Shown: positions 1 through 20,789 of the stretch, in pieces
Layout of the letters: every line of letters begins with the position of its first letter
How positions within the stretch are numbered: the stretch's first letter is position 1
NCBI GenBank assembly: GCA_036507075.1
Contig: DASXQR010000176.1
Coordinates: 1 to 20,873, forward strand
DNA length: 20,873 nt
From: Acidobacteriota bacterium
Lineage (GTDB): Bacteria; Acidobacteriota; UBA6911; JACQSX01
Reading direction: 5' to 3'
Position numbers and translations under genes: made by a program
The notes under the pieces: model-generated
What the model was told of the DNA's origin: nothing
Database searches by the model: none
Seen by the model: only the letters and a program-made list of their open reading frames with translations

Positions 1-14
1 GACGTGGAAGGGAC

Positions 15-172
15 AATTTGGATTTCGGATTGCGGATCTCAGCATCAAACGGTTGTGGGCCACACATATTGATTCCACATCCCTCATTTCCCATTCCGCA
101 TTCCGCATTCCGCATTCCGCATTCCCCATTCCGCATTCCGCATTCCCATTCCCAATTCCCCATTCCGCATTC
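15..172. repeat. Inverted heptamer-array element, ATTCCGC family (short left arm 15-39, long right arm 72-172)
   Basis: 72-172 holds about 14 tandem units (ATTCCAC ATCCCTC ATTTCCC ATTCCGC x4 ATTCCCC ATTCCGC x2 ...) and runs into the murD stop codon. 15-39 (ATTTGG ATTTCGG ATTGCGG ATCT) is the complementary-type arm. Same design as 9317-9417. Confidence 0.9.
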
Positions 173-1544
173 ATTGCCCCTTCAACTTCATCACCGCCGC
201 CTTGAACTGCCGGCCCCGGTCTTCGTAGTCCTGAAACATGTCAAAGCTGGCGCAGGCGGGCGCCAGCAACACCACATCGCCCGGCCGCGACTTTTCCATA
301 CCGAGACGGACTGCCTCTTCCAAGCCGGCGGCACGGGAGATCGGCTTAAGATCGCCCAGCGCCGCCGCGATCTTTTCGGCCGCTTCACCAATCACTACAA
401 TATGCCTCACGCGCTGCCGAACGGATTCCCGGAGGTCCGAGAAATCGGCGCCCTTGTCGCGCCCTCCCATCAGCACCACCAGCGGCTCGCTGAATGCCTC
501 AAGCGCCTTGATGGCCGCGTCCACATTGGTTGCCTTGGAGTCGTTGAAGAACGAAACTGCTCCGATCTCGGTCACAAACTCCAGTCGATGTTCCACCGCT
601 TTGAAATCCCGAACGGCAAGCGCCATCTGTTCCGGACTGACCCCTGCGGCAAAACCGGCGGCGGTGCAAGCCAGGACGTTTTCCAGATTGTGGCTTCCTC
701 GGAGCGGGATCTCTGCGATGTTGATAACCTTGAAATCGTCCTTCCCTTCCCGCAGCCAGACGGCGCCCTCTCTTACAAATGCCCCTCGACTTACCGGGTT
801 GCGGGCGCTAAACCAATGGACGTCAGAGTGAACCCGGGGCGCCATCGCCTTTACCCGCGCGTCATCGGCATTCAGAACAGCGGCATCCTCTTCCATTTGA
901 TTCTTAAAAATCCTTTCTTTTGCGATGCCATAGAGGTCCATGCTCCCGTGTCGATCGAGATGATCGGGAGTAAGGTTGAGCATCACTGCCACGTTCGGGC
1001 GGAAGTGATCGATGGTCTCGAGTTGAAAACTCGACACCTCTACGACGTGCCAGCTCGCCGTGTCCTCGTTTTGCACCTGGCTGATCAGCGGTGTCCCAAT
1101 GTTTCCGCTGATGAATGTGCTGGGATACCTTTTTGCCAGCATGGCCCCGAGCATAGCCGTGCATGTCGTCTTGCCGTTGGACCCGGTCACGGCCACGATT
1201 CTTCCTTTGAGGACCCGATACGCCAGCTCGATTTCCGAAATCACTGGAACGCCCGCGTCCATGGCCCCTCGAACCACCGGGTGGCTGAGCGGGACTCCCG
1301 GGCTGAGCACCGCCAGATCGGGCTTCTCGGACGGCGGCGGAAAGGTCCCGCCCAAATAGAGCTTCACCGGGAGTGGGCTTTTTGCGCGGATCGCCCCGAG
1401 CTGTTCGATCCATGGGCCAAGATCCGCCTCCCTTTTGTCGTCCGTGATGACCGCCTCGCTTCCTCTTTCCAGCAGGAACCTCACCACGGCCACCCCTGTT
1501 CTTGCCAGGCCGATGACGAGGACCTTCTTGCCGGCCACCTCCAT
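171..1544 (-). CDS. murD: UDP-N-acetylmuramoyl-L-alanine--D-glutamate ligase
   Basis: N-terminal VLVIGLARTG, SPGVP, P-loop VTGSNGKTT, EVSSFQL, NLTPDHLDRH, NDSKATN, C-terminal LLAPACASFDMFQDYEDRG; follows mraY in dcw order. Confidence 0.98.
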   Translation of the reverse strand: MEVAGKKVLVIGLARTGVAVVRFLLERGSEAVITDDKREADLGPWIEQLGAIRAKSPLPVKLYLGGTFPPPSEKPDLAVLSPGVPLSHPVVRGAMDAGVPVISEIELAYRVLKGRIVAVTGSNGKTTCTAMLGAMLAKRYPSTFISGNIGTPLISQVQNEDTASWHVVEVSSFQLETIDHFRPNVAVMLNLTPDHLDRHGSMDLYGIAKERIFKNQMEEDAAVLNADDARVKAMAPRVHSDVHWFSARNPVSRGAFVREGAVWLREGKDDFKVINIAEIPLRGSHNLENVLACTAAGFAAGVSPEQMALAVRDFKAVEHRLEFVTEIGAVSFFNDSKATNVDAAIKALEAFSEPLVVLMGGRDKGADFSDLRESVRQRVRHIVVIGEAAEKIAAALGDLKPISRAAGLEEAVRLGMEKSRPGDVVLLAPACASFDMFQDYEDRGRQFKAAVMKLKGQ

Positions 1545-1550
1545 AAGCCA

Positions 1551-2663
1551 TCACCGCAATTTCAGCGTGGTCAGGCTGAACAGGACGAAAATCAGCGCGA
1601 TAATCCAGAAACGCACCACTACTTTGGGTTCTCTCCATCCGAGTAACTCGAAATGATGATGTACCGGCGCCATGCGAAAAATTCTCTTTCCCCGCATCTT
1701 GTAAGATGCCACTTGCAAGATCACCGAGAGCGCCTCGATTACAAAAATACCGCCGATGAACGGCAACAAGAGCTCTTGTTTGATCAGGAGTGCCACCGTC
1801 CCGATCGCTCCACCCAGCGCCATGGCGCCTACATCGCCCATGAACACTTCCGCAGGGTAGGAGTTGTACCAGAGAAAACCAAGGGTCGCGCCCACCATGG
1901 AGCCACAGAAGATTGTCAATTCACTTACGTACACGTTTTTGATGAGTCCCAGATAAGATGCAAATGTGGCATGTCCGGTAACGTAAGTCAGAACAGTCAA
2001 AGCCGACGCAGTCATGACCACTGAACCCGCCGCAAGACCATCCAATCCGTCGGTCACGTTCACGGCGTTGGAGGCTCCAACCAGCACCCATACGGCAAAA
2101 AGAATCAGCGGCAGGTACGTCGAATATCCGGCAATCTTCAGGTCCAGCACCGGCCGGATTTTCTTAAAAAACGGAACACTCAACTCGAGGCTGTAGATGC
2201 CCTGATGGTACAGCAGGATTAAAACTGCTGCGATGACCAGCGATGCGGCAATCTGGGCCCCCATTTTGGACCGGGCCGTCAAGCCGAGATTGCGTTTGTG
2301 AGCGGTCTTCAAGTAGTCATCCAGGAATCCGATCAACCCAAACAGAGTGATTGAGGCCATCGCAATCCACACATAGTAGTTCGTCAGATCCGCCCACAGC
2401 AGCGTGGGGATCAGAACACTGGCAACAATCAATACACCTCCCATGGTGGGAGTGCCCGCCTTTGAGCGGTGTGCCGCCGGTCCCTCTTCCCGGATGTACT
2501 GCCCGATCTGAAATTCCCTCAGCCGGCGAATCACCCAGGGACCGAAGACCAAGGTGAGGAGCAGCGCCGTGAGAGAGGCGTACACGGTTCGGAACGTGAT
2601 GTAGCGAACAACGTTGAGGACCGGTATTACCTGATGGAACTGGTAAAGGAAGTGATAAATCAT
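1551..2663 (-). CDS. mraY: Phospho-N-acetylmuramoyl-pentapeptide transferase
   Basis: Polytopic membrane protein with [43 protein letters not shown]. Confidence 0.98.
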
Positions 2664-4051
2664 GAATGGACTCCGCTTCCGTGAAGCGCTGTCAGGCGCT
2701 CCACTACCTTATCCATGCGGATTCCGCGGGAACCCTTTACCAACAGCAGGTCTCCGGTGCGGCACAGTTGAGCGGTAAATTCAGCGGCCTGCTCGCTGCT
2801 CTCAAAGTATCGGGTCTGAGATTCCGGCACGCCTCCCTGTTTTGCCCCTTCCAGGATGGCTGCGGCGTTCCCACGCACTCCAATGATCCAATCGAATCCA
2901 AGCCGCGCCAGCTCCAGGCCGGCCTCGTAGTGGAAGCGGGGGCTTTCTTTCCCGAGCTCGAGCATTTCTCCCAGCACGGCAATCCTGCGGCGGAAGCCCG
3001 CCAGGGTGGCAGCCGAAGCAGCGACTTCGCGCAGTGCTGCCGGGTTTGAATTGTATGAATCGTCGATGAGCGTGGCCGAGTTGCTTATCCTGATAATTTG
3101 ACCGCGCATCGGGACCGGCGACAGTGAGGGTGCCACGGACGCGATTTCGTCCACTGTCAGGCCCATCCAGAACGCGACGGCGGCAGCCGCCAGAAAGTTG
3201 TAGACGAAGTACCTGCCCGCCATAGGAAGGACCACCTCCCGACGCGATCCTCCTGCCAGCAGCACAAAGCTTGTCCGGACCGATTCGGGAATGCGAATAT
3301 TCTGAGCCTGGATTTCCGATGAGGATTGCGTGCCGAAAGCGATCTTTTTCCCCTTGAACGCGGCGGCCTTGCTCGAAAGCAGCGGATCATCGGCGTTGTA
3401 AACCCACGTTCCTCTGGATTCAAGATATTCGGCGAGCTCCAGTTTGGCTTGTGCGATCTGCTCAACGGAATCGAAGAATTCCAGATGAACCGGCTGTACG
3501 TTGGTAATCACGCCGGCGTCCGGTTCCGCAATCCGGCTCAGGGCGGCAATTTCTCCCAGCGCAGACATTCCCATTTCAAGAACGGCCACATCTGTTTCAG
3601 GCGACATGCGCAGCAACGATAGCGGCAGCCCGAAGTGGTTGTTCAGGTTCCCCGCGTTGGAGTAGACGCGGAACCGGGAGCTGAGCACTCCGGCGATGAA
3701 GGTTTTGGTGGTGGTTTTCCCTGTGCTGCCTGTCACTGCCACCACGGTTTTCGACCAGAGACGCCGATACTCGCGCGCCAGATTCTGAAGCGCTTCTGTG
3801 GTGTCGCGCACCTGCAACTGAGAGTTGCTGGAGGAAATCTCATTCCTCAACTCCGATACCACGGCCCCGGCCGCCCCTTTCTGGAACGCGGATTGCAAAA
3901 AGTCGTGACCGTCAAATTTCGGCCCTTTAATGGCAAAGAAAAGATCCCCGGGCTGCAGCGTTCGGCTGTCAATGGAGAATCCCGAGATTGCGGGCAGCCG
4001 TGCGCCGACGAGTTTGGCGTTCATCGCGCCGGCAATCTGCTCAGCCGTCAT
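2660..4051 (-). CDS. murF: UDP-N-acetylmuramoyl-tripeptide--D-alanyl-D-alanine ligase
   Basis: [63 protein letters not shown]; 4-bp overlaps with murE and mraY. Confidence 0.97.
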
Positions 4052-5517
4052 TTCTCGTCCTCGATCGCCTGCTGGGCCTCTTCCTTGTCCGAGAATGGAA
4101 TTTTCTGTGTCCCGATCACCTGGTAGTCCTCATGTCCCTTGCCGGCCAATATAACGGTATCCTCATCGGTCGCCATTCCCACCGCGTGGCGAATTGCTTC
4201 GCGGCGGTCCCGGATGCGCACATAGGGGGTGGACGTGATTTTCACGGAAGGCTCGATCGCGTCCAGAATCGCATCGGGATCTTCGGTGCGCGGGTTATCC
4301 GTAGTAATCACCACATAATCGGCAAACTGGGCGGCAACTTTTCCCATCACCGGCCGCTTGGTCCGGTCTCGATCGCCGCCGCATCCGAATAGCACGATCA
4401 ATTTCCCCCGGGTAAGGGGTCGGGAAAGCTGCAAAACATTTCTCAAAGCATCGTCGGTGTGCGCGTAATCGACATAGATATGCAGCCCTCTGGAATTCTG
4501 CACCGGCTCCATCCGCCCCGGCGCGGTCTGCATCTCCTGCACGCCCTTCTGGACCGCTTTTCCCTCTACTCCCAGTTCCAGCGCCGCGGCGCACGCTCCC
4601 AGGATGTTATACACATTGGGCAATCCGATCAGAGAAGAGCGAATGGCAAGAGAACGCTTTCCGGAAAGCTGAAAGGCGATTCCGTGCTGGTCGAGGCTCA
4701 GATCACGACACTGGTAGTCGGTCTTCGGACTTACTCCAAAGCTCACTCGCCGGCTTCCCACCTCATTCCAGAGACGATCGCCGTAGGCATCATCCCGGTT
4801 GACGACCCGGATGGGGTTGCCGAATGCCGGATCCACAAAAAATCGCCTCTTGGCTGCATAGTAGTTTTCGAAGGTCCGATGAAAGTCAAGATGATCCCGG
4901 GTCAAGTTGGTAAAGATAGCCGCCTTGAAATCCAGAAAGTCGCTGCGGCGCAGCTCCAGCGCGTGGGATGAAACTTCCATGCAACCAAACCGGCAACCGG
5001 CGTCCACGGCGCGCCGCAGCAGCGACTGCACGTCCGGCGCTTCGGGAGTGGTATGTTCAGCGGGAATCTGCTCGCCTCCGATTTTGCGACCGATGGTCCC
5101 CAGCATCGCTGTGCTCGCCCCTACGGCCCGAAAGATTGAATCCATCAGGTACACGGTGGTGGTTTTACCGTTGGTTCCCGTTACTCCCACCAGCATCAAG
5201 TCTCGGCTCGGATGCCGGTAAAAATTAGCGGCTGCGCGAGCCATACTGGCGCGCGCATCGGAAACGCGCAGCCACGCAACCCTGTGGGGATCGGCCGGTT
5301 TTTCCGAAATCACACACGCGGCGCCTTTTTGCACGGCGTCGCTGACAAAACGGTGTCCATCAGTGTTGAATCCGCGGAGCGCGAAGAACAGGTAACCCGG
5401 TTTGACCTGCCTGGAGTCATAAGCCAGCCCTGTTATTTCAGGGGGAGCACCTCCGTGAGCTTCTCCGCCTGTCATGCTAATCACTTCAATACCTTGCATC
5501 AGCTCTTTTAAGTTCAA
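4048..5517 (-). CDS. murE: UDP-N-acetylmuramoyl-L-alanyl-D-glutamate--2,6-diaminopimelate ligase (TTG start)
   Basis: YDSRQV, VTGTNGKTT, HTTPEA, MEVSSHAL, FTNLTRDHLDFH, VDYAHT, FGCGGDRD, DNPR motif (typical of meso-DAP specificity), AGKGHE. Confidence 0.98.
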   Translation of the reverse strand: MNLKELMQGIEVISMTGGEAHGGAPPEITGLAYDSRQVKPGYLFFALRGFNTDGHRFVSDAVQKGAACVISEKPADPHRVAWLRVSDARASMARAAANFYRHPSRDLMLVGVTGTNGKTTTVYLMDSIFRAVGASTAMLGTIGRKIGGEQIPAEHTTPEAPDVQSLLRRAVDAGCRFGCMEVSSHALELRRSDFLDFKAAIFTNLTRDHLDFHRTFENYYAAKRRFFVDPAFGNPIRVVNRDDAYGDRLWNEVGSRRVSFGVSPKTDYQCRDLSLDQHGIAFQLSGKRSLAIRSSLIGLPNVYNILGACAAALELGVEGKAVQKGVQEMQTAPGRMEPVQNSRGLHIYVDYAHTDDALRNVLQLSRPLTRGKLIVLFGCGGDRDRTKRPVMGKVAAQFADYVVITTDNPRTEDPDAILDAIEPSVKITSTPYVRIRDRREAIRHAVGMATDEDTVILAGKGHEDYQVIGTQKIPFSDKEEAQQAIEDEK

Positions 5518-7543
5518 GTGAGGTCCTGACCTGATAGGGCTTAAAACTGAAAAACACTTCGCATACCATCCCGTTGTAGATGGGGATGCCGGCAGCGGGG
5601 CGCTGAGCCACGGCGCGCCCGGCGCCCGAAATCTTCAGCTTCAAACCGAGGCGGGCGCAGATGCGAGCAACCTCGCGCACACTTTTTGTCGAAAAATCCG
5701 GCAACTGCTCCGAAGTTTCTTCAAGAGGCATGGAAACAACGCCGCGCGGGCCGGCAGATTCCAGCTTTGGTTCCTGGCGCAGCATGCTCTGCACCACCTG
5801 AACTACATCTACGATTTCAGTTTCATCCGGCTGCGGCTCCGCCGGAATTGACCGGGCTATGCGCAGGGTGTCTTTTTCCCGGGGTATCCCCAGTTGCACC
5901 AGCGTCCGTTCCACGATTTCCTTGAATACAGGCGCCGCAACGGCGCTTCCATAAATCGCCCCCCTCGGCTCGTCAATCATCACCAGCACCACCACTGCCG
6001 GATTCTCCACTGGAGCGAAGCCCACAAACGAAGCAACGTAGCGCGTATGCGAGTAGCTCCCGTCGATAAATTTCTGCGCGGTGCCCGTTTTGCCGGCAGC
6101 GCTGTAGCCATAAGGTTTCGCCAGTTTGCCCGTTCCGTCGTCCACTACCTGGATCAGGGCCTGCCGGATCCTTTCAGCCGTTGGGGAGCTGATTACACGA
6201 TGGCATTCCGAACGCCCGGACTTGACCACCGAACCGTTGGGCGCCAGCACTCGATTCACTATGCTGGGACGCACCCATTGGCCGTCGTTGGCCAGCGCCC
6301 CGAAAGCCGCCGCCACTTGAAGTGGAGTGACGCCGATCTCCTGTCCGATCGAGATGGCGCCAATTGAGAGCTTGGACCAGCTTTCCGGAGCCCTCAGCAG
6401 GCCGCTCTGCTCGCCGGGGAGTTCCACGCCTGTGGGCTGGCCAAATTGGAATTTTCGGATGTACTGATAGAGCCTTTCCTCTCCCAGCCTTAATCCTAAC
6501 TTGATTGTCCCCACATTGCTCGACTTGGCCAGGATCTGATTAAACGTCAGCACTCCGTAGGAGTCGTGCGCCTCTCGAAAAACCTTCCCGCCCAGCGAAA
6601 CTGAACCCACACTGCAGTTAATCAGCTCTTCCGGAAAGGCAAGTTTTTCTTCCAGCGCGGCCGAAGCGGCCACAATCTTGAAGGTGGACCCTGGCTCGTA
6701 AGTGTCGAGAATGGCGCGGTTACGCCTCATTTCGGCAGTGACCTGCGCGTACTGGTTTGGGTTGAACGACGGATAAGACGCCATCGCCAGCACCGCCCCG
6801 GAATGCGGCTCGATTACAATCGCGGCGCCTCCGGAGGCCTGAAACTTTTCGACGGCGCCGCCGAGTTGCTGCTCGGCGATATACTGAATGTTCTTGTCCA
6901 GGTTCAGCACCACCACATTTCCCGATTGTGAATTCTCATCCGGCGCTCCGAACAGAATCTGGCTTCTGGCATCACGGGTTACGATAACGGTGCGGGCGTC
7001 GCCGCGAATTTCGCCGTCCAGGAGATACTCAATTCCCGAAAGTCCCGTGTTGTCCATTCCCACAAATCCAATCACATGCGCGGCCAGTTCCTGATTTGGA
7101 TAAAACCGTTTGCTTTCCCTCTGAAACCTGAGTCCTCTCAGCCCCAGCGCTCGGATCTGCTCGCTCTCGCGCGGGGTGATCTTGCGCTTGACATAGACAA
7201 AAGGCGCTCCCGAAGTAAGCCGCTCGTAAAGAGTCTCAACGGGAATGCCGATGATAGGTCCGATTTTCTGCGCTGCGGCACGGACATCCTTGATCTCTCT
7301 GGGATGGCAGTAGACGGAATCCAGCGCGACGCTCACGGCCAGTTCTTCCAGATTACGATCGAGAACGTCTCCCCGCATGGGAGTGAGCTGGACATATCCC
7401 TGCTGCTGCTGCTGCGCCTTTTGCAGGTAGGTGTCGTGCTGGAATATCTGGAGCTGCACGAGGCGAAAGAAGATCACAAGCGCCCAGAGGAAAACCAGGG
7501 CTGCCAGGCAGATCAGGCGATGAGGATTAAAATCGTTCCGCAT
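5486..7543 (-). CDS. ftsI: Class B penicillin-binding protein (PBP3/FtsI) with C-terminal PASTA-like domain
   Basis: N-terminal TM, RGDVLDRN, RFYP, GLSGIE, SxxK (EPGSTFK), SxN (SSN), KTG (KTGTAQK); tail LPDFSTKSVREV...GAGRAVAQRP resembles PASTA. Overlaps the murE start by 32 bp. Confidence 0.95.
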   Translation of the reverse strand: MRNDFNPHRLICLAALVFLWALVIFFRLVQLQIFQHDTYLQKAQQQQQGYVQLTPMRGDVLDRNLEELAVSVALDSVYCHPREIKDVRAAAQKIGPIIGIPVETLYERLTSGAPFVYVKRKITPRESEQIRALGLRGLRFQRESKRFYPNQELAAHVIGFVGMDNTGLSGIEYLLDGEIRGDARTVIVTRDARSQILFGAPDENSQSGNVVVLNLDKNIQYIAEQQLGGAVEKFQASGGAAIVIEPHSGAVLAMASYPSFNPNQYAQVTAEMRRNRAILDTYEPGSTFKIVAASAALEEKLAFPEELINCSVGSVSLGGKVFREAHDSYGVLTFNQILAKSSNVGTIKLGLRLGEERLYQYIRKFQFGQPTGVELPGEQSGLLRAPESWSKLSIGAISIGQEIGVTPLQVAAAFGALANDGQWVRPSIVNRVLAPNGSVVKSGRSECHRVISSPTAERIRQALIQVVDDGTGKLAKPYGYSAAGKTGTAQKFIDGSYSHTRYVASFVGFAPVENPAVVVLVMIDEPRGAIYGSAVAAPVFKEIVERTLVQLGIPREKDTLRIARSIPAEPQPDETEIVDVVQVVQSMLRQEPKLESAGPRGVVSMPLEETSEQLPDFSTKSVREVARICARLGLKLKISGAGRAVAQRPAAGIPIYNGMVCEVFFSFKPYQVRTSLELKRADARY

Positions 7544-7557
7544 GAGGAGGTGCCGCC

Positions 7558-7714
7558 TGTCCGTTCTTCGTGCTCCGTGCTCCGTGGTCCGTTGGCGGTT
7601 GTTTACTATCCTTTCATCATCCGTTGTAAGTATTGGAGGGGGTCATCGATTGGGCCCGCAATGCCACGGGCAAGAACAACGGACGACGGACCACGGAACA
7701 ACGGACCGCCGATC
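7558..7714. repeat. Inverted heptamer-array element, TGTCCGT/ACGGACA family
   Basis: Left arm 7558-7599: TGTCCGT TCTTCGT GCTCCGT GCTCCGT GGTCCGT TGGCGGT. Right arm 7666-7714: ACGGGCA AGAACA ACGGACG ACGGACC ACGGAACA ACGGACC GCCGATC. Same family as 11499-11638. Confidence 0.85.
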
Positions 7715-7739
7715 CAGTATTCTTACATACTCAGAATCT

Positions 7740-7766
7740 TCACTCTGTCCAATAAACAATCGTCAT
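7740..7766 (-). other. Candidate 8-codon mini-ORF MTIVYWTE* behind a strong Shine-Dalgarno
   Basis: Minus strand reads AAAAGGAG-AATTC-ATG ACG ATT GTT TAT TGG ACA GAG TGA, between ftsL and ftsI; not in frame with ftsI. Confidence 0.3.
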
Positions 7767-7812
7767 GAATTCTCCTTTTTATTTTCCGGAATCTCGTCCG
7801 CCCAAATAATGC

Positions 7813-8223
7813 TCACTGCCGCGTCTCCTTGTTTCCGGAAACTGCGGGCAAAATAGACTCAGCCAGTACCCGCTCTGTCGTGACGGCGGCCGAATCGCTG
7901 ATGAAAACAACCTTTTCTGAATTTGCCGGGATCAGCCCCAGTTGCGCGCGGGCAAATGCATCGATCCGCTGCGGAGAGCGGCATGCTGCGTGTTCCAGCA
8001 ACAAGGCCTGGTGTTGCTCTTTGAGCAAAGCCGTGTCGCGTTTGATTTCCTGAACCTGGTAACCAAGCGCAATGATTTCAGAATGAAACCAGGAGTAGGC
8101 CAGAATGAGAAAAGCCACTATGCTGCCAAGCAAAACGTAGCGGCCGATCTCACTGAGACTGATCTTGTGGGCGGCGCTGGCAACTGCGCGATTCTGAATC
8201 TGTTGGCAATGATAATCCTTCAT
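7813..8223 (-). CDS. ftsL: Cell division protein FtsL
   Basis: Small bitopic protein: one TM, coiled coil, RSPQRIDAFARAQLGL motif; located between rsmH and ftsI; AGGTG SD upstream. Confidence 0.9.
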   Translation of the reverse strand: MKDYHCQQIQNRAVASAAHKISLSEIGRYVLLGSIVAFLILAYSWFHSEIIALGYQVQEIKRDTALLKEQHQALLLEHAACRSPQRIDAFARAQLGLIPANSEKVVFISDSAAVTTERVLAESILPAVSGNKETRQ

Positions 8224-8236
8224 AAGTCACCTAAAT

Positions 8237-8302
8237 CTTTGTGTCCTTTGTGTCTTTGTGGTGAAAAAGCGTCCCACCACAAAGACACAAAGAGCACAAA
8301 AG
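8237..8302. repeat. Hairpin element of CTTTGTG(T/N) 8-9-mer units
   Basis: CTTTGTGTC CTTTGTGT CTTTGTGGTG (8237-8263), 11-nt loop, CACCACAAAG ACACAAAG AGCACAAAAG (8275-8302); the inner 18 bp are a perfect stem. Near-identical to 14220-14285. Confidence 0.92.
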
Positions 8303-8321
8303 CAAAAATCGGTCCCGCAGC

Positions 8322-9251
8322 TTAAAGCTTTTCCACCGATCGAAGCTTTGCGCTGCGGGACCTCGGATTCCGGTGAACCTCCTCCTCAGTTGGCTGCACC
8401 GGCTTCCTTGTCAATAACCGAACCACCTTTTTCTTTGGGCAGTTACATTCGTCGGCGGGGCGGAAACAGATGCATTTCCCGCTGAGCAGGTTGAATTCGG
8501 TTTTAACAATTCGATCTTCCAGTGAGTGAAAACTGATTGCCACCATCCGTCCGCCGGCTTTCAGAAACTCTACGGTTTCATGAATGAATTCCTTCAGACC
8601 TGCGAGCTCGTCGTTGACCGCAATCCTGAGGGCTTGAAATACCCGCGTGGCTGGATGAATGCGATGCTTACCCAGTTTCACTACCGAGCGCACAATACGA
8701 GCCAGCATTCCGGTGGTCGTGATCTGCTCCAGTGCGCGTTCTTCGACAATGCGGCGCGCGATCTGACGCGACTTCCTCTCTTCGCCGAAGCGATAAAAAA
8801 TGTCTGCCAGTTCCTTTTCAGATAATTGCTGGACCAGGTCGGCCGCCGTAAGCTTCTGCGTCGTATCCATCCGCATATCGAGGGGACCTTCAGCGAAACT
8901 GAAGCCACGTTGAGGGGACATCAACTGGAGGGATGAAGCTCCGAGGTCCAAAAGGATGCCGTCGACTTCGGAGATGTGGAGGTTGTTCAGAACCAGGGGA
9001 AGGTTTTTGTAATTCTCGTGGAAAAGCTTGATGCGGCGGCCGTTGGTTAACCGTTCCTGAGCTAGCTGCAAAGCGTGGCTGTCACGATCCAAACCGATCA
9101 GAAGACCGTCGGGACCGATTTCTCTGAGAACGGCTTCAGAGTGGCCACCCAGACCCACAGTACAGTCGACATAGGTACCTCCACGCCTGCAATCCAGAAA
9201 CCGGATTACTTCATTCAACAGTACCGGCGTGTGTGTGGTGGAGGTCGACAT
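8322..9251 (-). CDS. rsmH: 16S rRNA (cytosine1402-N4)-methyltransferase
   Basis: HTPVLLNEV, YVDCTVGLGGHS, DLGASSLQL, RGFSF, PLDMRMD, HPATRVFQALRIAVNDEL, ISFHSLEDRIVK, NPRSRSAKLR. Confidence 0.98.
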   Translation of the reverse strand: MSTSTTHTPVLLNEVIRFLDCRRGGTYVDCTVGLGGHSEAVLREIGPDGLLIGLDRDSHALQLAQERLTNGRRIKLFHENYKNLPLVLNNLHISEVDGILLDLGASSLQLMSPQRGFSFAEGPLDMRMDTTQKLTAADLVQQLSEKELADIFYRFGEERKSRQIARRIVEERALEQITTTGMLARIVRSVVKLGKHRIHPATRVFQALRIAVNDELAGLKEFIHETVEFLKAGGRMVAISFHSLEDRIVKTEFNLLSGKCICFRPADECNCPKKKVVRLLTRKPVQPTEEEVHRNPRSRSAKLRSVEKL

Positions 9252-9316
9252 TTTTTAACGCCTCGTGATTTCAATTCACAACAACAAATTCAATGCAACA
9301 CTCAGATGCTCCTTGC

Positions 9317-9417
9317 AATTTCGGATTGCAGAATGCGGAATGCGGAATGGGCCTTAAATTCCTGGGAGAACCAGCCTTTTATTCCGCATTCGGCATTCAG
9401 AAATCCGCATTCGGCAC
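9317..9417. repeat. Inverted heptamer-array element, ATTCCGC family
   Basis: Left arm AATTTCGG ATTGCAG AATGCGG AATGCGG AATGGG (9317-9351), 29-nt spacer, right arm ATTCCGC ATTCGGC ATTCAGA AATCCGC ATTCGGC (9381-9415); ends about 10 nt from the mraZ stop. Confidence 0.9.
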
Positions 9418-9426
9418 ACTTCATTG

Positions 9427-9867
9427 CTAAATCCCAAAATCAGAAAGCGTCTCGGCATCCTTGTTTGTGTACGGATCGGATTCCATCAGCTTCGAGAAAC
9501 GCTCATTGTTCCAAACCTCCAGATATGTGAGGTTGCCCATTACAGCCACTTCTCCGGCCATTCCGGCGGCTTCGCGAAGATGCGGCTGGATCAGTACCCG
9601 TCCTTGCTTGTCCATCTGCGTCAGTTGGCCGTAATAATTTGTGTTCCTCAAAAATTTCACCTTTTCGGGCTTCATCTTCGGAGGGGCCAGAAGCTTGGCC
9701 TCAATCTCCTCCCATTCCGAAAGCGGATAAATCAAAACGTTGTTCCCCGTGAGGCTGGTGACATACACATCGACGCCGTATTTCTCCTCAATGAACTTGC
9801 GGAAGCCGACAGGGACTTTAATGCGTCCCTTTTCATCCATTGTTGCCGGTAAATTTCCCCGCAGCAT
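9427..9867 (-). CDS. mraZ: Division/cell wall cluster transcriptional repressor MraZ
   Basis: Two AbrB-like repeats (MDEKGRIKVP, MDKQGRVLIQPHLR), LEVWN motif; first gene of the dcw cluster; GAGGA SD. Confidence 0.97.
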   Translation of the reverse strand: MLRGNLPATMDEKGRIKVPVGFRKFIEEKYGVDVYVTSLTGNNVLIYPLSEWEEIEAKLLAPPKMKPEKVKFLRNTNYYGQLTQMDKQGRVLIQPHLREAAGMAGEVAVMGNLTYLEVWNNERFSKLMESDPYTNKDAETLSDFGI

Positions 9868-9920
9868 TCCATCCTCAACGACTCTTTCCCTTTAAAAACG
9901 GGTAAACAAGGAAGGCTTGG

Positions 9921-9955
9921 ACCCTTTTTCTCTACTTTAGTCCACTTTAGTCCAC
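9921..9955 (-). promoter_or_regulatory. MraZ binding repeats (operator)
   Basis: Minus strand GTGGA-CTAAA-GTGGA-CTAAA-GTAGA-GAAAA-AGGGT: GTGG-like boxes at an exact 10-nt period, just downstream of the -10 element. Confidence 0.85.
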
Positions 9956-9958
9956 GGA

Positions 9959-10020
9959 AGGATAGATCCGGTCTTATAGAGAGTCAAGGTTTTTTTTGAT
10001 TTATGCTTATTTTTTCTAGA
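9959..10020 (-). promoter_or_regulatory. Sigma70-type dcw promoter with A-tract UP-like region
   Basis: -35 TTGACT (9987-9982), 17-nt spacer, -10 TATCCT (9964-9959); A/T tracts at 9990-10015. Confidence 0.8.
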
Positions 10021-10034
10021 GTTAACGCCGAACC

Positions 10035-10373
10035 GGAAGGCGGAAAGCAGAAGGCAGAAGGCGGAAGGCATGAGGCGGAAGGCAGGAGGCAGAAAGAGTG
10101 CGCGCCAGCCGAACCGTGCGCGTCAGCAAACGGACCCTTCAAAGTAACACTGCGGATTCTGTAAGCGGAAAGTCTGGCCTGAAAACGCCGAGGGTTTACA
10201 GGTGAAGCCGTTACCTGGAAGAGTCCGCTTGCTGACGCGCGCGCTTCGGCTAATGTGCACTGCCGCCTGCCTCCCGCCTCCTGCCTCCCGCCTCCTACCT
10301 CCTGCCTCCCGCCTCCTGCCTCCTGCCTCCTGCCTTCCGCCTCCTGCCTTCCGCCTTCCACATTCCGCATTCC
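10035..10373. repeat. Large nested foldback element: inverted GGAGGC/GCCTCC heptamer arrays around an inner 52-bp inverted repeat
   Basis: Left arm about 9 units (GGAAGGC/AGAAGGC/AGGAGGC, 10035-10096); right arm 16 units (GCCTCCT/GCCTCCC/GCCTTCC, then ACATTCC GCATTCC, 10262-10373). Inner IR 10097-10148 vs 10210-10261 matches 42/52 without gaps; 61-nt loop. Confidence 0.92.
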
Positions 10374-10383
10374 AGCGTACGTC

Positions 10384-10392
10384 TGCTACCAT
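10384..10392 (+). promoter_or_regulatory. Candidate extended -10 promoter for the ychF-like gene
   Basis: TG-C-TACCAT 23 nt before the GTG start; SD GGGGAG at 10406-10411; no good -35 (that position falls inside the heptamer array). Confidence 0.5.
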
Positions 10393-10415
10393 GACGCCTT
10401 TCTCTGGGGAGCACT

Positions 10416-11495: not shown

Positions 11496-11498
11496 GGT

Positions 11499-11638
11499 TG
11501 ACCTTTGTCCGTTGTCAGTGGTCCGTTGTCCGTCGCCCTTTGCAAGAAACGCAAGCGAAAGAGCAAAAGTGGAACGGAAAGAACCAATGGCAAAGCGAAG
11601 ATTACGGACCACTGACAACGAACCACTGACAACGGAGC
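11499..11638. repeat. Inverted heptamer-array element, TGTCCGT/ACGGACA family
   Basis: Left arm TGACCTT TGTCCGT TGTCAGT GGTCCGT TGTCCGT CGCCCTT (11499-11540), purine-rich spacer, right arm ACGGACC ACTGACA ACGAACC ACTGACA ACGGAGC (11604-11638). Confidence 0.9.
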
Positions 11639-11644
11639 CATGAA

Positions 11645-12382
11645 ATGACAAAACAGTTTGCCGCCACGCTTGTTCTCGGGGCGGTGGCAGCCCTGGCTAA
11701 CATCCTGGGAGGCTGGTTTGTCTCATACCAGAAATCGCTGGATCGGCTCCTGGTGCGTATTTTGATCGCTCTCGGCGCGGGTTTCCTGCTGGCCGCCACG
11801 TTTTTGGTGGTGCTCCCGGAAAGCATGCGGTTGAATGTCAACACACCGTTGATTGTGCTGGCAGGATATCTCCTGATTCAGCTGTGCCAGCACACCATCG
11901 CGACCCATTTCCACTTCGGCGAGGAGACGCATCACGAACTTCATGCGCGGCAGTACGTGGGTTACACAGCCGTATCAGGAATGGCGCTGCATGCTTTCTT
12001 TGATGGAGCGCTGATCGCTTCCGGTTTTGCCCTCTCAGGCAGAATCGGCGTACTGCTTTTCGTCGCTGTGCTGCTGCACAAGATTCCGGAGGGTTTTACT
12101 GCGGCATCGATCATGCGGGCAGCCGGCAGGAGCCGGCGCGTGGCCCGTTTTTCTGCGGAGTTGATCGCGGCCGCCACGTTCCTTGGGATCGTTTCCATCT
12201 CACTGATTGCAGGCGCCGTACGCTATGCTCTCCCCTTCAGCGCCGGCGTGACGCTGTATGTGGCGGCTTCGGATTTGATTCCGGAGGTGAACCGGGAGGG
12301 GCAAATCTGGATTAGCGGGGTTGTATTCCTGGGAGTGCTGTTCTATTTTCTGACCGAGTTACTGCTCGACGCTGTTATTTAG
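11645..12382 (+). CDS. ZIP (ZupT/GufA) family divalent metal transporter
   Basis: About 8 hydrophobic segments, His-rich loop HTIATHFHFGEETHHELH, TM4/TM5 motifs ALHAFFDG and LLHKIPEG, LYVAASDLIPE. Confidence 0.93.
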   Translation: MTKQFAATLVLGAVAALANILGGWFVSYQKSLDRLLVRILIALGAGFLLAATFLVVLPESMRLNVNTPLIVLAGYLLIQLCQHTIATHFHFGEETHHELHARQYVGYTAVSGMALHAFFDGALIASGFALSGRIGVLLFVAVLLHKIPEGFTAASIMRAAGRSRRVARFSAELIAAATFLGIVSISLIAGAVRYALPFSAGVTLYVAASDLIPEVNREGQIWISGVVFLGVLFYFLTELLLDAVI

Positions 12383-12397
12383 GAATAACGGTTCGCG

Positions 12398-12473
12398 AAT
12401 TGGAAAATCATCAATTCTGAATCGTGTAATTGGGAAATTTTGAATTCACCACAGGGACACAGGGGGCACAGAG
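12398..12473. repeat. Degenerate AAT(T/C) 7-8-mer tract fused to a solo arm of the CACAAAG family
   Basis: AAT starts at 12398, 12406, 12413, 12420, 12428, 12436, 12443. It is followed by CACCACAGGG ACACAGGG GGCACAGAG (12447-12473), a variant of the right arms at 8275 and 14260. Confidence 0.7.
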
Positions 12474-12481
12474 CATCTTTT

Positions 12482-12508
12482 TGCTAAACTGGTAATTCTT
12501 GCTACTTT
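12482..12508 (+). promoter_or_regulatory. Two candidate extended -10 elements upstream of proS
   Basis: TG-C-TAAACT (12482-12490) and TG-C-TACTTT (12500-12508); no SD before the ATG at 12524. Confidence 0.4.
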
Positions 12509-12523
12509 CAACTTTCCACTTGT

Positions 12524-14218
12524 ATGCGTTGGTCTAAGGCCTTCATCCCGACATTGCGCGAGCTTCCGTCCGACGCGGAGTTCAAAAGTCATCAGCTCTT
12601 GCTGCGCGCGGGCTACATCCGCCAGCTCGGCGCGGGTATTTATTCGTACCTCCCGCTGGCGCAGAGGTCGCTGGAACGAATCGCGCGAATCATTCGAGAA
12701 GAGATGGATCACATTGGAGCTCAGGAGTTCTATCTGCCGGCTCTCCACCCCGCGGAAATCTGGAAGGAGAGCGGACGCTGGGACGTGATGGGCGACAACA
12801 TGTTTCGCCTCAAAGACCGCTACCAGCGGGACCTTTGCCTGGGAATGACGCACGAAGAGGTTTTTACCGCCATCATTCGGGACGCGATCCGTTCCTACAA
12901 AGAGCTGCCCCAGATCTGGTATCAGATTCAGGTGAAGTTTCGGGATGAGCCTCGGCCCAAGTCGGGACTGCTCCGAGTTCGGCAGTTCCTGATGAAAGAC
13001 AGTTACTCGTTTGATGTGAGTACCGGCGGGCTGGACGAAAGCTACATGAAACATCATCAGGCTTACCGCCGGATATTTGATCGCTGCGGTCTGAAGTACA
13101 TCGACATCCAGGCTCACAGCGGCGCGATGGGCGGAAGTGGATCGCAGGAATTCGTCGTCCGATCGGACGCCGGGGAAGATCACGTCGTGCACTGCCCTTC
13201 CTGCGGTTACGCTGCCAATGTGGAAAAGGCAGGCACCCGGGTGACGGGAATCGAAGATCCTGCGCAGAATCTGGAACCGGAAATTGTGCACACGCCTTCG
13301 CAAAAAACCATCGCGCAGGTCTCCGAGTTCCTCAAGATTGATCCTTCGCGCCAGATGAAATCGGTGGTTTACATGGCCGATAACCACCCGGTGCTGGTGC
13401 TGGTCAGGGGTGATCACCAGGTCAACGAAACTAAACTCGAATCGGTTCTCACGACCCAGACTCTGCGCCCCGCGCACCCGGAAGAAATCCGGCAGTTCTT
13501 TGGCGCCGATGCGGGGAGTCTGGGACCCTACAAGCTCAGAGATGTGCGCATCGTTGCGGATGAGGCGCTGCGCGGCCGCCGGAATCTGGTGAGCGGCGCC
13601 AACCGGGACGACCACCATTACCGCAATCTTACGCCCGGTGAAGATTTCCATCCGGAATATGCAGATCTGCGTTCTGCCGAGTCCGGCGACCTGTGCATTC
13701 AGTGCGGCAAGCCGGTGGAGGTGTTTCGTGCCATGGAAATCGGCCACATCTTCAAACTGGGCGTGAAGTATTCCGAGTCGATGGGAGCTTACGTCCTCAA
13801 CGAAGCGGGAGAGCGAATCCCGATCGTGATGGGAAGCTACGGCATCGGACTGGAACGAATTCTGTGCGCCGCCATCGAGCTCTATGCCGATCAGGACGGA
13901 ATTGTCTTCCCCGCCGGTATCGCGCCATACGACGTCGTGATCTCCCAGGTCAACAGCAACGACTCGGAGCAAGCGCGAGTGGCCCGAAGTTTTTACGATC
14001 AGCTTACTGCTTCCGAAATGGAAGTGCTGTGGGATGATCGCGACGAGCGTCCCGGCGTAAAATTCAAGGACGCGGATTTGATTGGGATCCCTTACCGAAT
14101 CACCGTCGGAAACAAAATCAAGGAAGGCAAAGTCGAGATTTTCAATCGCGCTCGCCGGGAGAAAAAGGAAACGCCGATTGACGAAGCCTTGGCCGCGCTG
14201 AGGGAGATGATGAAATGA
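12524..14218 (+). CDS. proS: Proline--tRNA ligase, bacterial type with INS editing domain
   Basis: SHQLLLRAGYIRQ, WKESGRW, LGMTHEE, motif 2 KFRDEPRPKSGLLRVRQFLMKDSYSF, INS GADAGSLGP, EIGHIFKLG, motif 3 MGSYGIGLERI, anticodon domain DDRDERPGVKFKDADLIGIP. Confidence 0.98.
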   Translation: MRWSKAFIPTLRELPSDAEFKSHQLLLRAGYIRQLGAGIYSYLPLAQRSLERIARIIREEMDHIGAQEFYLPALHPAEIWKESGRWDVMGDNMFRLKDRYQRDLCLGMTHEEVFTAIIRDAIRSYKELPQIWYQIQVKFRDEPRPKSGLLRVRQFLMKDSYSFDVSTGGLDESYMKHHQAYRRIFDRCGLKYIDIQAHSGAMGGSGSQEFVVRSDAGEDHVVHCPSCGYAANVEKAGTRVTGIEDPAQNLEPEIVHTPSQKTIAQVSEFLKIDPSRQMKSVVYMADNHPVLVLVRGDHQVNETKLESVLTTQTLRPAHPEEIRQFFGADAGSLGPYKLRDVRIVADEALRGRRNLVSGANRDDHHYRNLTPGEDFHPEYADLRSAESGDLCIQCGKPVEVFRAMEIGHIFKLGVKYSESMGAYVLNEAGERIPIVMGSYGIGLERILCAAIELYADQDGIVFPAGIAPYDVVISQVNSNDSEQARVARSFYDQLTASEMEVLWDDRDERPGVKFKDADLIGIPYRITVGNKIKEGKVEIFNRARREKKETPIDEALAALREMMK

Positions 14219-14219
14219 T

Positions 14220-14285
14220 CTTTGTGTTCTTTGTGTCTTTGTGGTGAATTCGCTTTTGAACCACAAAGACACGAAGAACACAAAG
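14220..14285. repeat. Hairpin element of CTTTGTG units between convergent genes (possible bidirectional terminator or 3' stabiliser)
   Basis: CTTTGTGTT CTTTGTGT CTTTGTGGT (14220-14245), 14-nt loop, ACCACAAAG ACACGAAG AACACAAAG (14260-14285): 26-bp stem with one mismatch (G-U wobble on the plus strand); fills 66 of the 69 intergenic bases. Confidence 0.92.
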
Positions 14286-14287
14286 CA

Positions 14288-15574
14288 TTAAAGCGGCGAT
14301 TGCAGCCAGCCTTCCGTATCGAATTGCATCGGCTCGCTCTGACCGAGAATCTCAAGGCGTGGAATTTTTTCGGCCTCTTCGCGCAGCCCCTCCGATAAAA
14401 GCAGCCGATCAAGCGACAGCGTATCCCGGATGTGCGCGATCCGCGGTCCTGCCAGCCTGGGAGGGCACGTGCTCAATGCGGTCATGATCGCCTCGCGATC
14501 GTTGGGCAAAACCACGGGCGGCCGAGCCCCCGAAGGCGACCTGGCGGTAAACGAGTTGAGCTGCGTTATCCCCAGATTGACGCGGTTCATCATCTTTGGC
14601 GTGGTGAAGTCGGCCAGACCCATTCCGACCGCGTTTCCCTCGGTTTCGTCAGTCAGACCTCTGACGAATATCCGGTAAATCGCCGGCATGCCTTCGATCC
14701 AGGGAACACCTTCCACGTGGCCGCGCACGCCGCGCCCGATGACGTTTGTATCCATGCCGGTTCCCGAGATGTTCTTTCCCATCCGATCACACACCAGCAG
14801 ATCAAGATCGGAGATCGGCAGGCTACCCATCAGCTTGCACGCTTCCAGCAGCAACTTCGCTTCTTGGTCAAAAAAGTTCGTCAGCGGGACTGCGGCGATG
14901 CGTGCCGTCTCATGATAGGCGTTCTCGATAATCGCCAGTCCCCCCAAAATCTTGCCCGTCTGAATAATGCGCTCGGCTGCGATCCGGAGCGCCCTTCCCA
15001 GCCCGACATCGAAAACACGGCTGTGATATTCCCTGGCTCCTTCGAGCTTACCGAGCCCGATGGCGCAGATTTTGGTGAGCCCGCTTTCAATGGGCCCTTT
15101 GTAATCGGTATGCGGTTTGACGCGGTTCAAAAGCAGTACACCGTCGCAGTCCAGAGCAGTCTGCGCGACAAACACCTCAATGTTTTCCGCGCTTCGTCCC
15201 AGAGAGCGTGTCGCCATCCCGGAAAGGACCGGACACCCCATGGTTGTCTCGGTGACGCCATAGTGAGCAATCAGGTTGCGTTGTCCTTCCGACGTGGCGC
15301 CTGCGTGGCTTCCCATGGCGGGCAGTATGAAAGGCTGGAAGCCGCGCAACTTGAGAAATTCCACAGCGGCCGCCGCGACTTCAGCGATGTTCTTGATACC
15401 GCGGCTCCCGACCGTTACTCCGACCCTGGCACCGGGCGAAAGCGGCTGACGCGAATCCGGCGGTGAGAAAAGTGAATCCAGTTGCTCAAAAACCCGGGCA
15501 CGAATGTCATCGACGCGAGGCCTCTCGAAAGTCTGGCGCGCCAGGAACATGCACGGGATCCCATTCTGGCTCAT
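14288..15574 (-). CDS. LarA-like (lactate racemase N-terminal/DUF2088-type) domain protein, substrate unknown
   Basis: VGVTVGSRGIKNI, PAMGSHAGATSEGQ, LNRVKPHTDYKGPIESGLTKICAIGLGK, GKNISGTGMDTNVIGR, GNAVGMGLADF: motifs I recognise from this conserved family. Confidence 0.75.
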   Translation of the reverse strand: MSQNGIPCMFLARQTFERPRVDDIRARVFEQLDSLFSPPDSRQPLSPGARVGVTVGSRGIKNIAEVAAAAVEFLKLRGFQPFILPAMGSHAGATSEGQRNLIAHYGVTETTMGCPVLSGMATRSLGRSAENIEVFVAQTALDCDGVLLLNRVKPHTDYKGPIESGLTKICAIGLGKLEGAREYHSRVFDVGLGRALRIAAERIIQTGKILGGLAIIENAYHETARIAAVPLTNFFDQEAKLLLEACKLMGSLPISDLDLLVCDRMGKNISGTGMDTNVIGRGVRGHVEGVPWIEGMPAIYRIFVRGLTDETEGNAVGMGLADFTTPKMMNRVNLGITQLNSFTARSPSGARPPVVLPNDREAIMTALSTCPPRLAGPRIAHIRDTLSLDRLLLSEGLREEAEKIPRLEILGQSEPMQFDTEGWLQSPL

Positions 15575-15581
15575 CAGAGTT

Positions 15582-15587
15582 ATTTTA
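15582..15587 (-). promoter_or_regulatory. Candidate -10 element for a leaderless or near-leaderless transcript
   Basis: Minus strand TAAAAT-AACTCTG-ATG: -10 hexamer 7 nt before the start codon, no SD. Confidence 0.5.
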
Positions 15588-15606
15588 GATCACTGCCCGG
15601 TTTAGT

Positions 15607-15648
15607 CGTAAACGTAATCGTGGACGTTGACGTGCGCGTGCTCGTGAA
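15607..15648. repeat. Hexamer tandem tract CGTNNN x7
   Basis: CGTAAA CGTAAT CGTGGA CGTTGA CGTGCG CGTGCT CGTGAA: CGT at an exact 6-nt period. Confidence 0.8.
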
Positions 15649-15660
15649 CTGAGTTTCTAC

Positions 15661-15856: not shown

Positions 15857-15871
15857 CAGTTAACTCGTCGC

Positions 15872-20719: not shown

Positions 20720-20789
20720 GAAGGAACGGGAGCGCGCGACCCAGAGACGCGATACATCTCTTCTGAGGCGGGTGCAATAAATCGCGCTT

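Follow-up and report, generated by a model that had tools for sequence, protein, structure and literature searches.

What fills the gaps between the genes of an essential division and cell wall (dcw) operon with hairpins made of short tandem repeats? The question is raised by contig C176 (positions 1-20873; hereafter the window, 20,873 nt) of a soil-metagenome Acidobacteriota genome (G000; 6.12 Mb in 233 contigs, 56% G+C, assembly completeness 96%). Six gaps in the window carry foldbacks, in which an array of tandem units is followed by a spacer and by inverted units (7558-7714, 8237-8302, 9317-9417, 10035-10373, 11499-11638, and 14220-14285), and three of these gaps, ftsI|ftsL, ftsL|rsmH, and rsmH|mraZ, belong to the dcw operon. 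The original prediction held that such elements are non-autonomous, spread by an enzyme encoded elsewhere, and possibly empty cassettes of a mobile system that encloses four-helix-bundle or GxxExxY nuclease-like genes. Our analysis indicates that the window hairpins are likely to resemble miniature transposable elements with inverted repeats (MITEs) or REPINs (hairpins formed by pairs of repetitive extragenic palindromes, REPs), and that the cassettes are inverted arrays of 7-9-nt units around a four-helix-bundle or GxxExxY gene. For the further step, that the hairpins are derivatives of these cassettes, unable to move by themselves and copied to new sites by cassette proteins acting in trans, we see about an even chance.

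Relatives are designated G001, G002, and so on, and C-numbers denote contigs of G000. Tandem arrays were located with Tandem Repeats Finder (TRF), arm pairs with an inverted-repeat finder, and genes were named by Pfam and NCBIfam. In RNA fold tests, each stretch was compared with 200 shuffles and scored as a z-score. Genome-wide gene calls were made with a crude codon-usage picker of open reading frames (ORFs), for which start distances are approximate and stop positions exact.

Abundance, placement, and polarity of foldbacks

The genome contains 4914 non-overlapping short-period arrays (TRF score of at least 30), which constitute 3.0% of G000, are dominated by periods of 7 (1313 arrays), 8 (1180), and 9 (844), and comprise 1144 distinct units. 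The array-poor relative G002, of the same family, served as a natural background for array density: arrays with a TRF score of at least 40 occur at 337 per Mb in G000 versus 37 per Mb in G002, a rate that predicts about 0.6 such arrays in the window, where about 10 were found. Neighboring arrays that share 6-mers were inverted in 1052 cases and direct in 144. Foldbacks with loops of at most 200 nt number 868 and total 136,393 bases, or 2.2% of 6.1 Mb; the median element is 144 nt long with 32-nt arms of about 4 units (4.0), and units per arm range from 2 to 34 around a mode of 3-4.

An array was present in 1518 of the 2787 gaps of at least 50 nt. Foldbacks have a median distance of 18 nt to the adjacent stop and of 59.5 nt to the adjacent start, and in tandem gaps 320 foldbacks were closer to the stop and 153 to the start; occupancy by foldbacks was 38% in convergent, 30% in tandem, and 18% in divergent gaps. 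The scan for repeat units across the genome, which had been proposed as a check, thus found foldbacks that are abundant, non-random in orientation, and near stop codons. A TTTT run lay within 12 nt after 13.7% of 1726 hairpin ends, versus 5.1% of control sites, while 86% had no T-run; foldbacks are therefore not ordinary intrinsic terminators.

Among the 615 foldbacks in the 39 unit families with at least five foldbacks each, 586 showed the polarity of their family's majority, whereas random assignment yielded a mean of 363 and a maximum of 389 in 1000 simulations. Fixed polarity of this kind argues for common descent of the copies, and independent local origin does not predict it. The claim that the same arm faces outward in every copy of a family thus holds for the great majority of copies genome-wide, but it fails for the CTTTGTG family, which keeps no single polarity. 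The CACNAAG superfamily, to which that family belongs, exists in two forms: (i) 189 copies with CACNAAG on the left and loops of about 80-110 nt or less than 20 nt, and (ii) 39 copies with CTTNGTG on the left and loops of 13-19 nt, among them both CTTTGTG hairpins of the window.

The largest family, AATGCGG (left arm GGAATGC, right arm GCATTCC), has 152 foldbacks. Its left arm is stereotyped at about 31 nt, with 4.4-4.6 units in 63 of the 152, and its loops measure 40-49 nt in 81 copies; column conservation is about 90% in the arms and about 50% in the loops, which are nonetheless alignable. The pattern of unit degeneracy in this family is that of a fixed master sequence and not of decay, and a test of growth from the loop side found no gradient between outer and inner units in five families. 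Of 695 spacers examined, 348 have relatives among other spacers, including 80-110-nt cores of 8/9-mer families. The elements are dispersed copied families, not local accidents. Nested foldbacks amount to 19 pairs in G000 versus a naive random figure of 59, so the counts give no support for enrichment in loops and only the centering holds: guests of another unit family are centered in the host loop, with left and right offsets that differ by no more than 10 nt, in 15 of the 19 (e.g., C88:67532-68043). Centered nesting yields composite mirror-image arms.

Association with four-helix-bundle and GxxExxY genes

The suggested link of such arms to two gene families holds in this genome. The four-helix-bundle family (TIGR02436, 23S_rRNA_IVP) gave 8 matches at 7 loci in G000, all above the curated cut-off (C199, C88, C225, C37, C73, C17, and C231; none on the window contig), and PF05635 matched four of these loci with E-values from 2e-30 to 4e-14. 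All seven loci are flanked on both sides by arrays of 6-8-nt units; six are inverted pairs, and one, built of the near-palindromic hexamer ACGTSC, is ambiguous. GxxExxY genes (TIGR04256) were found at 6 loci, likewise all above the curated cut-off and 4 of them full length. Inverted arms enclose five of the six; their units measure 8 or 9 nt, or 37 nt in one case, and the remaining locus is single-armed. Among the 20 four-helix-bundle loci of 16 relatives from the same class, 16 are flanked by inverted tandem arms, both G002 loci included. Some genes adjoin a complete foldback instead of sitting between its arms (C88, C225, C37, C140). At C145:17530-18200, a GxxExxY gene stands between inverted arrays of the 37-nt unit; the architecture is therefore not limited to units of 7-9 nt.

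We then considered which genes lie between arms, where a test for enrichment of these families had been proposed. Inverted pairs of proper polarity, 300-1200 nt apart, number 23, and four-helix-bundle loci lie inside 5 of them, as against 18 for the roughly 4100 remaining gene calls (Fisher p 7e-11); the 84 pairs of opposite polarity merely bracket ordinary genes between two adjacent foldbacks. A census of the largest ORF in 20 of the 23 pairs returned 4 four-helix-bundle matches, the fifth locus (C73) being a decayed copy visible only in the genome search, together with 5 ordinary genes (sdhC-like, MOSC, DusB, dioxygenase, and an outer-membrane protein), which we read as chance neighbors, and 10 ORFs without a family match, which may be spurious. 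No third cargo family appeared in the 20 scanned pairs, and the 10 family-less ORFs were taken no further.

Protein and repeat unit vary together. Across 22 loci, distances between proteins correlate with distances between their units (Mantel r 0.34, p 0.0006), paralogues within one genome differ in protein and unit alike, and similar proteins in different families share a unit, such as GGTCATT, present in both G007 and G000, or AGGAGYC, present in both G008 and G023. At C82:21180-21560, a gene-less foldback still has the arms, the two sub-terminal regions, and the opening codons of a C231-like cassette (83% over 188 nt and 71% over 110 nt), with most of the gene lost. It is an internal-deletion derivative, a direct intermediate between cassette and empty hairpin. 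The suggestion that foldbacks are empty cassettes thus found a concrete case in this one copy, which is also the one for which ends and sub-terminal sequence shared with a gene-bearing cassette are established.

The four-helix-bundle protein matches the Avd models NF033474 (1.5e-10) and PF22296 (6.8e-12) as well as PDB 2gsc; no solved structure was found by sequence for the GxxExxY protein, and neither cassette gene (four-helix-bundle; PD-(D/E)XK-like) matched a transposase family. In G000, with its 6 GxxExxY and 7 four-helix-bundle loci, periods 8 and 9 together outnumber period 7; in the G001 sample, with 4 GxxExxY and 13 four-helix-bundle matches, period 7 outnumbers the other two. These two genomes hint that each gene family may pair with its own unit length.

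Elements of the window

The genes and elements of the window are as follows.

murD, mraY, murF, murE, ftsI, ftsL/DivIC-like, rsmH, and mraZ: minus strand (Pfam/NCBIfam)
ychF, ZIP transporter, and proS: plus strand (Pfam/NCBIfam)
LarA-family nickel-pincer isomerase (NF052515, 6e-134)
TonB-dependent outer-membrane protein gene, in the window (Pfam/NCBIfam)
15-40: short tract of GGATTNC units, each differing at one base from the complement of the array at 72-172
72-172: solo ATTCCGC heptamer array, 14.6 units, TRF score 132, overlapping the murD stop (171-173)
7558-7714: foldback in the ftsI|ftsL gap; arms GTCCGTK / ACGGAC, 26 nt, 85% complementary; -59.0 kcal/mol, z -3.7
8237-8302: tight hairpin in the ftsL|rsmH gap, (CTTTGTGY)3-GGTG-loop-CACC-(RCACAAAG)3; arms 26 nt, 92% complementary; -40.2 kcal/mol, z -8.9
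9317-9417: foldback in the rsmH|mraZ gap, left arm GGAATGC, right arm GCATTCC, of the genome's largest family; arms 27 nt, 89% complementary; -43.3 kcal/mol, z -4.2
10035-10373: foldback in the divergent mraZ|ychF gap; GRAGGCR arms of 8 and 13 units, 58 nt, 84% complementary
10095-10262: palindromic core of the GRAGGCR family, 168 nt, with 52-nt inner arms
11499-11638: foldback between ychF and the ZIP gene; arms GTCCGTT/GTCAGTG, 31 nt, 87% complementary; -52.2 kcal/mol, z -4.7
12398-12473: half-element remnants, a AATTCNNGA tract and then CACAGGGR units; no hairpin (z 0.15)
14220-14285: tight CTTTGTG hairpin between the convergent stops of proS and the LarA-family gene; arms 26 nt, 96% complementary; -41.7 kcal/mol, z -9.6
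15596-15648: truncated element of the ACGTSC hexamer family, comprising one arm and the end of the family core (CGTAAACGTAAT)

Seven foldbacks had been listed in the window, and six were upheld by their arms, by TRF, which detected 7/8-nt arrays in the arms of all six, and by folding. Five folded as whole elements with z-scores of -3.7 to -9.6, none of 200 shuffles being as good; for 10035-10373 the test covered the core 10097-10240 only (-60.5 kcal/mol, z -3.75). The seventh, 15-172, is instead a long solo array: no inverted pair was found in it, and its fold was matched by 123 of 200 shuffles (z +0.34). Its tract 15-40 sits at the start of the contig and may be cut. Solo tracts had also been described at 12398-12473 and 15607-15648; both are present, but as weak half-elements that gave no TRF row and no hairpin fold. 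The former has 4 short BLAST matches at other loci, and the latter (fold z 0.72) has 75 elsewhere as a half-element. The two CTTTGTG hairpins, 8237-8302 and 14220-14285, both fall into the smaller class of the CACNAAG superfamily, the one with reversed polarity and loops of 13-19 nt.

The spacers had been called unrelated. This is true of 7558-7714, whose spacer has no relative elsewhere in G000 by BLAST, but not of 10095-10262, which matches 92 loci in the genome, about 30 of them long copies and mostly between GRAGGCR arrays; it is therefore the core of that family and not an unrelated nested element. The enclosing element 10035-10373 matches the arms of four-helix-bundle cassettes in G000 (C199), G002, and G004 in unit type and polarity.

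As had been noted, the elements abut gene ends and none breaks into a gene when element and gene coordinates are compared. The array at 72-172 overlaps the murD stop; the hairpin at 14220-14285 lies 1 nt past proS and 2 nt from the LarA-family stop; and 11499-11638 begins 3 nt past the ychF stop and ends 6 nt ahead of the ZIP gene start.

Other repeats were seen near these genes. The mraZ upstream region contains two and a fifth direct copies of ACTTTAGTCC (9934-9955), which may be an MraZ operator; G002, G003, and G004 retain a doublet resembling it, ctactttggtccaatttggtccac, and G005 and G007 have a looser version. An inverted repeat of 20 nt with 90% complementarity spans the rsmH stop (8311-8362). 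Just downstream of rsmH is the motif GGTCCCGCAG; it is conserved in G001-G004, whereas the adjoining foldback is not.

Orthologous gaps and distribution in relatives

The nearest relatives available for comparison belong to sister genera of the same family, and none is congeneric: G001 and G003 form one genus (g2; RsmH 85% identical), and G002 and G004 another (g3; 78-82%). All four keep the dcw-ychF-proS synteny. The rsmH|mraZ gap is 175 nt in G000, with a GGAATGC foldback, and 82 nt in G001 and 277 nt in G003, both with GGATTGC foldbacks, and it is empty in G004 (24 nt) and G002 (16 nt). In the ftsI|ftsL gap, foldbacks of three different units occupy G000, G001, and G003, and there is none in g3. 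The alignment of the dcw locus, which had been proposed in order to find empty sites, thus shows gaps that are filled, empty, or occupied by other units and not gradual slippage. In two gaps of G002 (L004), ftsI|ftsL and ZIP|proS, we observed that genome's own dispersed palindrome, AGTACCTCGATTCATGAATCGAGGTACT, together with a split version.

The same turnover is seen on a wider scale. Of 37 gaps syntenic between G000 and G001, 10 are filled in both genomes, 3 in G000 only, 7 in G001 only, and 17 in neither; the unit family is shared in none of the 10 doubly filled gaps, one pair of which differs by a single base. Between G000 and G002, 27 of 84 gaps are filled in G000 only and 2 in G002 only. 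In some filled gaps the foldback starts within or directly after the stop codon, and the gap of the other genome is 2-25 nt. DNA contigs of four soil runs, compared with window positions 1-10280, showed no presence/absence variation and break in the repeats.

The distribution of foldbacks was surveyed in samples of 13-325 kb from 30 relatives. Densities of at least 75 per Mb were found in G001, G003, G005, G007, and G015, each with at least 3 four-helix-bundle matches, and eight relatives with neither gene had no foldback in the sample. Foldback density correlates with gene count (Spearman 0.55, p 0.0015), on small samples and among kin that are not independent.

Proposed mechanism and alternatives

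We suppose a copy-and-insert process that would need proteins encoded by the cassettes, which would act in trans and recognize the repeat unit. Insertions would survive only just outside coding sequence and away from promoters; the proximity to stops would then reflect survival, although gene-end targeting may also account for it. In an operon transcript, the arms would pair into a double-stranded RNA (dsRNA) stem of 26-58 bp, and by analogy with 23S rRNA intervening sequences (IVSs) RNase III is predicted to cut it. Such cutting would let an element sit harmlessly inside operons such as dcw and would split or stabilize the flanking mRNAs. Slippage may later alter the number of units; the spread of 2-34 units around the mode suggests such drift.

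Several observations weigh against this explanation. The two proteins found in the same cassette type are unrelated, and neither is a known transposase. AATGCGG, the largest family, has no gene-bearing copy in the 96%-complete assembly, and the CACNAAG superfamily occurs in both polarities (189 versus 39). Target-site duplications are unreadable because the nearest relatives belong to other genera, between which (about 73% protein identity) the flanks of filled and empty sites cannot be aligned; and a near-identical strain (soil run X2) has identical elements at 7558-7714 and 9317-9417 (1 and 0 differences). Among the relatives, most of which were sampled at 13-40 kb and which, as kin, are not independent, G006 (6 four-helix-bundle and 19 GxxExxY matches) and G010 (4 gene matches) have no arrays with a TRF score of at least 40 in 40 kb each, and G002 has 2 cassettes and almost no foldbacks. 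Gene presence is therefore not sufficient; the genes look necessary but not sufficient for foldback abundance. Finally, the distances to genes derive from a crude home-made ORF caller, and no enzyme activity, excision, or insertion event was observed in this sequence-only analysis.

Some of these points favor the main rival, in which the foldbacks are primary, made and spread by a host process such as snap-back synthesis or palindrome recombination, and the genes are passengers in their loops. Two unrelated gene families in one architecture, a largest family without a gene-bearing copy, and a gene-rich G006 without such arrays would all be expected of passengers, as would the genes that stand beside a complete foldback and the nested guests centered in 15 of 19 host loops, so that loop apices receive DNA or arms are mirror-copied. 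We nevertheless judge this account unlikely. The cassettes of array-poor G002 still have inverted arrays of their own, and the arms therefore come with the gene; protein and unit co-diverge; and the C82 copy keeps cassette-internal sequence that includes the gene start. Alternatively, the foldbacks might be host regulatory RNA hairpins (terminators, 3' stabilizers, or processing sites) that arose at each gap by slippage and palindrome-correcting template switching and were retained by selection, with no mobility. Their placement near stops, in tandem gaps as elsewhere, their excess in convergent over divergent gaps, the great stability of the stems, arms better conserved than loops, and the raised frequency of TTTT all accord with such a role. 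Against it, copies of one stereotyped arm with a homologous core occur in a single polarity at 100 or more loci, which local origin would not predict, and most hairpins lack a T-run; moreover, sister genera have empty gaps of 2-24 nt or other units at the same sites, and G002 and G004 operate the same dcw operon without these hairpins. We therefore consider a purely regulatory origin quite unlikely.

Two other explanations invoke known repeat systems. The genome has 12 Y1_Tnp matches, and the elements could be REPINs moved by its REP-associated tyrosine transposases (RAYTs, of the IS200/IS605 Y1 type); in the available part of one account, REPINs are likewise intergenic hairpin pairs (PMC3116915). 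Six of the 12 Y1 genes (C122, C85, C201:35721, C107, C32, and C223), however, are flanked by inverted GC-rich REP palindromes, and none of the 12 Y1 genes, whose flanks were all examined, is itself flanked by tandem-unit arms; a single one has a heptamer foldback in its vicinity, outside its REP pair. The window itself contains GC-rich REP-like palindromes of those REP families at 15660-15860 and 20760-20873 (GAGACGGCC...GGCCGTCTC; GTAGCGACGCGGCATGCCGCGTC), with 352, 226, and 111 BLAST matches elsewhere in the genome, and another, GAGACGGCCCTCAGGCCGTCTC, lies downstream of a Y1-transposase match at C201:22582. Two hairpin-repeat systems therefore coexist, each beside its own gene, the REP palindromes forming a classical REPIN-like one, and a RAYT origin of the foldbacks is highly improbable. 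The last explanation takes the arrays for regulatory repeats that form G-quadruplexes, a role proposed for (GGGNATC)4 in Xanthomonas and Nostoc. It could draw on the tendency of arms to have about four units (median 4.0) and on stop-proximal placement similar to that described in the available text on those repeats (PMC4692102). We give it almost no credence: no GGG occurs in the window units GGAATGC, GTCCGTT, and CTTTGTG, the architecture is common to hundreds of different units, and the four-unit arm belongs to a copied master sequence.

Returning to cassette-derived, trans-mobilized hairpins, we tentatively raise a broader possibility, which we hold to be doubtful: a new class of bacterial mobile element, of which the hairpins would be the gene-less majority, whose ends are inverted arrays of 7-9-nt units and whose motor or specificity factor, the enclosed Avd-like pentameric four-helix-bundle protein for 7-mers or a small PD-(D/E)XK-like GxxExxY nuclease for 8/9-mers, would read the unit. 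Were this true, one system would lie behind 23S rRNA IVSs, the short tandemly repeated repetitive (STRR) sequences of cyanobacteria, which we take to be heptamer arrays of similar unit size, and the excess of heptamer repeats in bacteria. The foldbacks occupy about 2% of the genome, including three gaps of the essential dcw operon, and would impose dsRNA stems on operon transcripts. Two small proteins can now be named as candidates for binding or cutting their own arm sequence, and the counts tie heptamer repeats to the four-helix-bundle gene of rRNA IVSs through copied hairpins, the same ends, a deletion intermediate, and turnover. To our knowledge, tandem heptamers of bacteria (STRR, Xanthomonas, Geobacter, Beggiatoa) have been described piecemeal for decades without a mechanism, and we know of no function proposed in over 30 years for the IVS gene.

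Comparison with known systems

The closest known counterparts are the ORF-bearing IVSs of 23S rRNA in Coxiella, Leptospira, and Salmonella, in which, according to the part of the account available (PMC4990558), a small S23p/four-helix-bundle gene lies between complementary, stem-forming ends. In Coxiella, the same part describes an S23p ORF, a stem with tandem heptamers (GACAGAT) that vary in number between strains, and cleavage by RNase III; it also describes ORF decay as common, as in the cassettes (PMC4990558). The window arms similarly form long stems (26-58 nt, 84-96% complementary, -40 to -59 kcal/mol). They differ in lying between protein genes and not in rRNA, in having no ORF, and in arms that are whole arrays of 3-20 units, at about 870 copies per genome.

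The cassette protein also resembles Avd, the accessory protein of diversity-generating retroelements, through its matches to the Avd models and PDB 2gsc, a homology of PF05635 to Avd that is already stated in the available text of PMC10053308. Unlike avd, none of the 7 loci has a reverse transcriptase beside it; the genome's only 2 reverse transcriptase matches are on C146 and C119, contigs without four-helix-bundle loci.

With REPINs and MITEs, the foldbacks share the form of short intergenic hairpins in hundreds of copies with a fixed arrangement of arms, a cognate gene flanked by the same repeats, and gene-less copies that far outnumber gene-bearing ones; as with MITEs, an internal deletion has turned a full copy into a gene-less one in a single case (C82). 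They differ from REPINs in that the arms are tandem 7-9-mers and not a single REP palindrome, and from both in that the enclosed genes belong to no known transposase family, the local RAYTs going with other repeats. No target duplication was seen in a comparison between genera whose flanks are unalignable.

Heptamer repeats have been reported in several bacteria. In Xanthomonas, (GGGAATC)n forms inverted pairs near stops that were read as G-quadruplexes, and GGGGAYT repeats are described for Nostoc; convergent inverted pairs in Xanthomonas always have one orientation (70 and 75 pairs in two genomes), and Rehm et al. state that they found the repeats not to be associated with mobile elements (PMC4692102). 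For Geobacter metallireducens, strand-switching pairs of four or five tandem heptanucleotides were drawn in the part available (PMC2700814), and TAACTGA repeats are described for Beggiatoaceae (PMC4679880, also in part). These repeats resemble the present ones in unit size, in about four units, in intergenic and stop-proximal location, and, in the portions available, in having no known function. They differ in that those portions read them as G-quadruplexes, regulator sites, or translational signals and link them to no gene family, whereas G000 has many different unit sequences side by side, with ties to cassettes. Subscription journals and the Geobacter supplements being outside its scope, our literature search found, except for the Coxiella IVS heptamers, no paper in which inverted arms of tandem repeats are linked to cassettes with a four-helix-bundle or GxxExxY gene. 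The available texts already record pairs of inverted heptamers near stops and IVSs with an ORF. What the present analysis adds is (i) statistics on polarity, master arms of stereotyped sequence, an intermediate left by deletion, and the turnover of orthologous gaps, and (ii) the array-poor control genome, the co-divergence of protein and unit, and the contrast with RAYTs.

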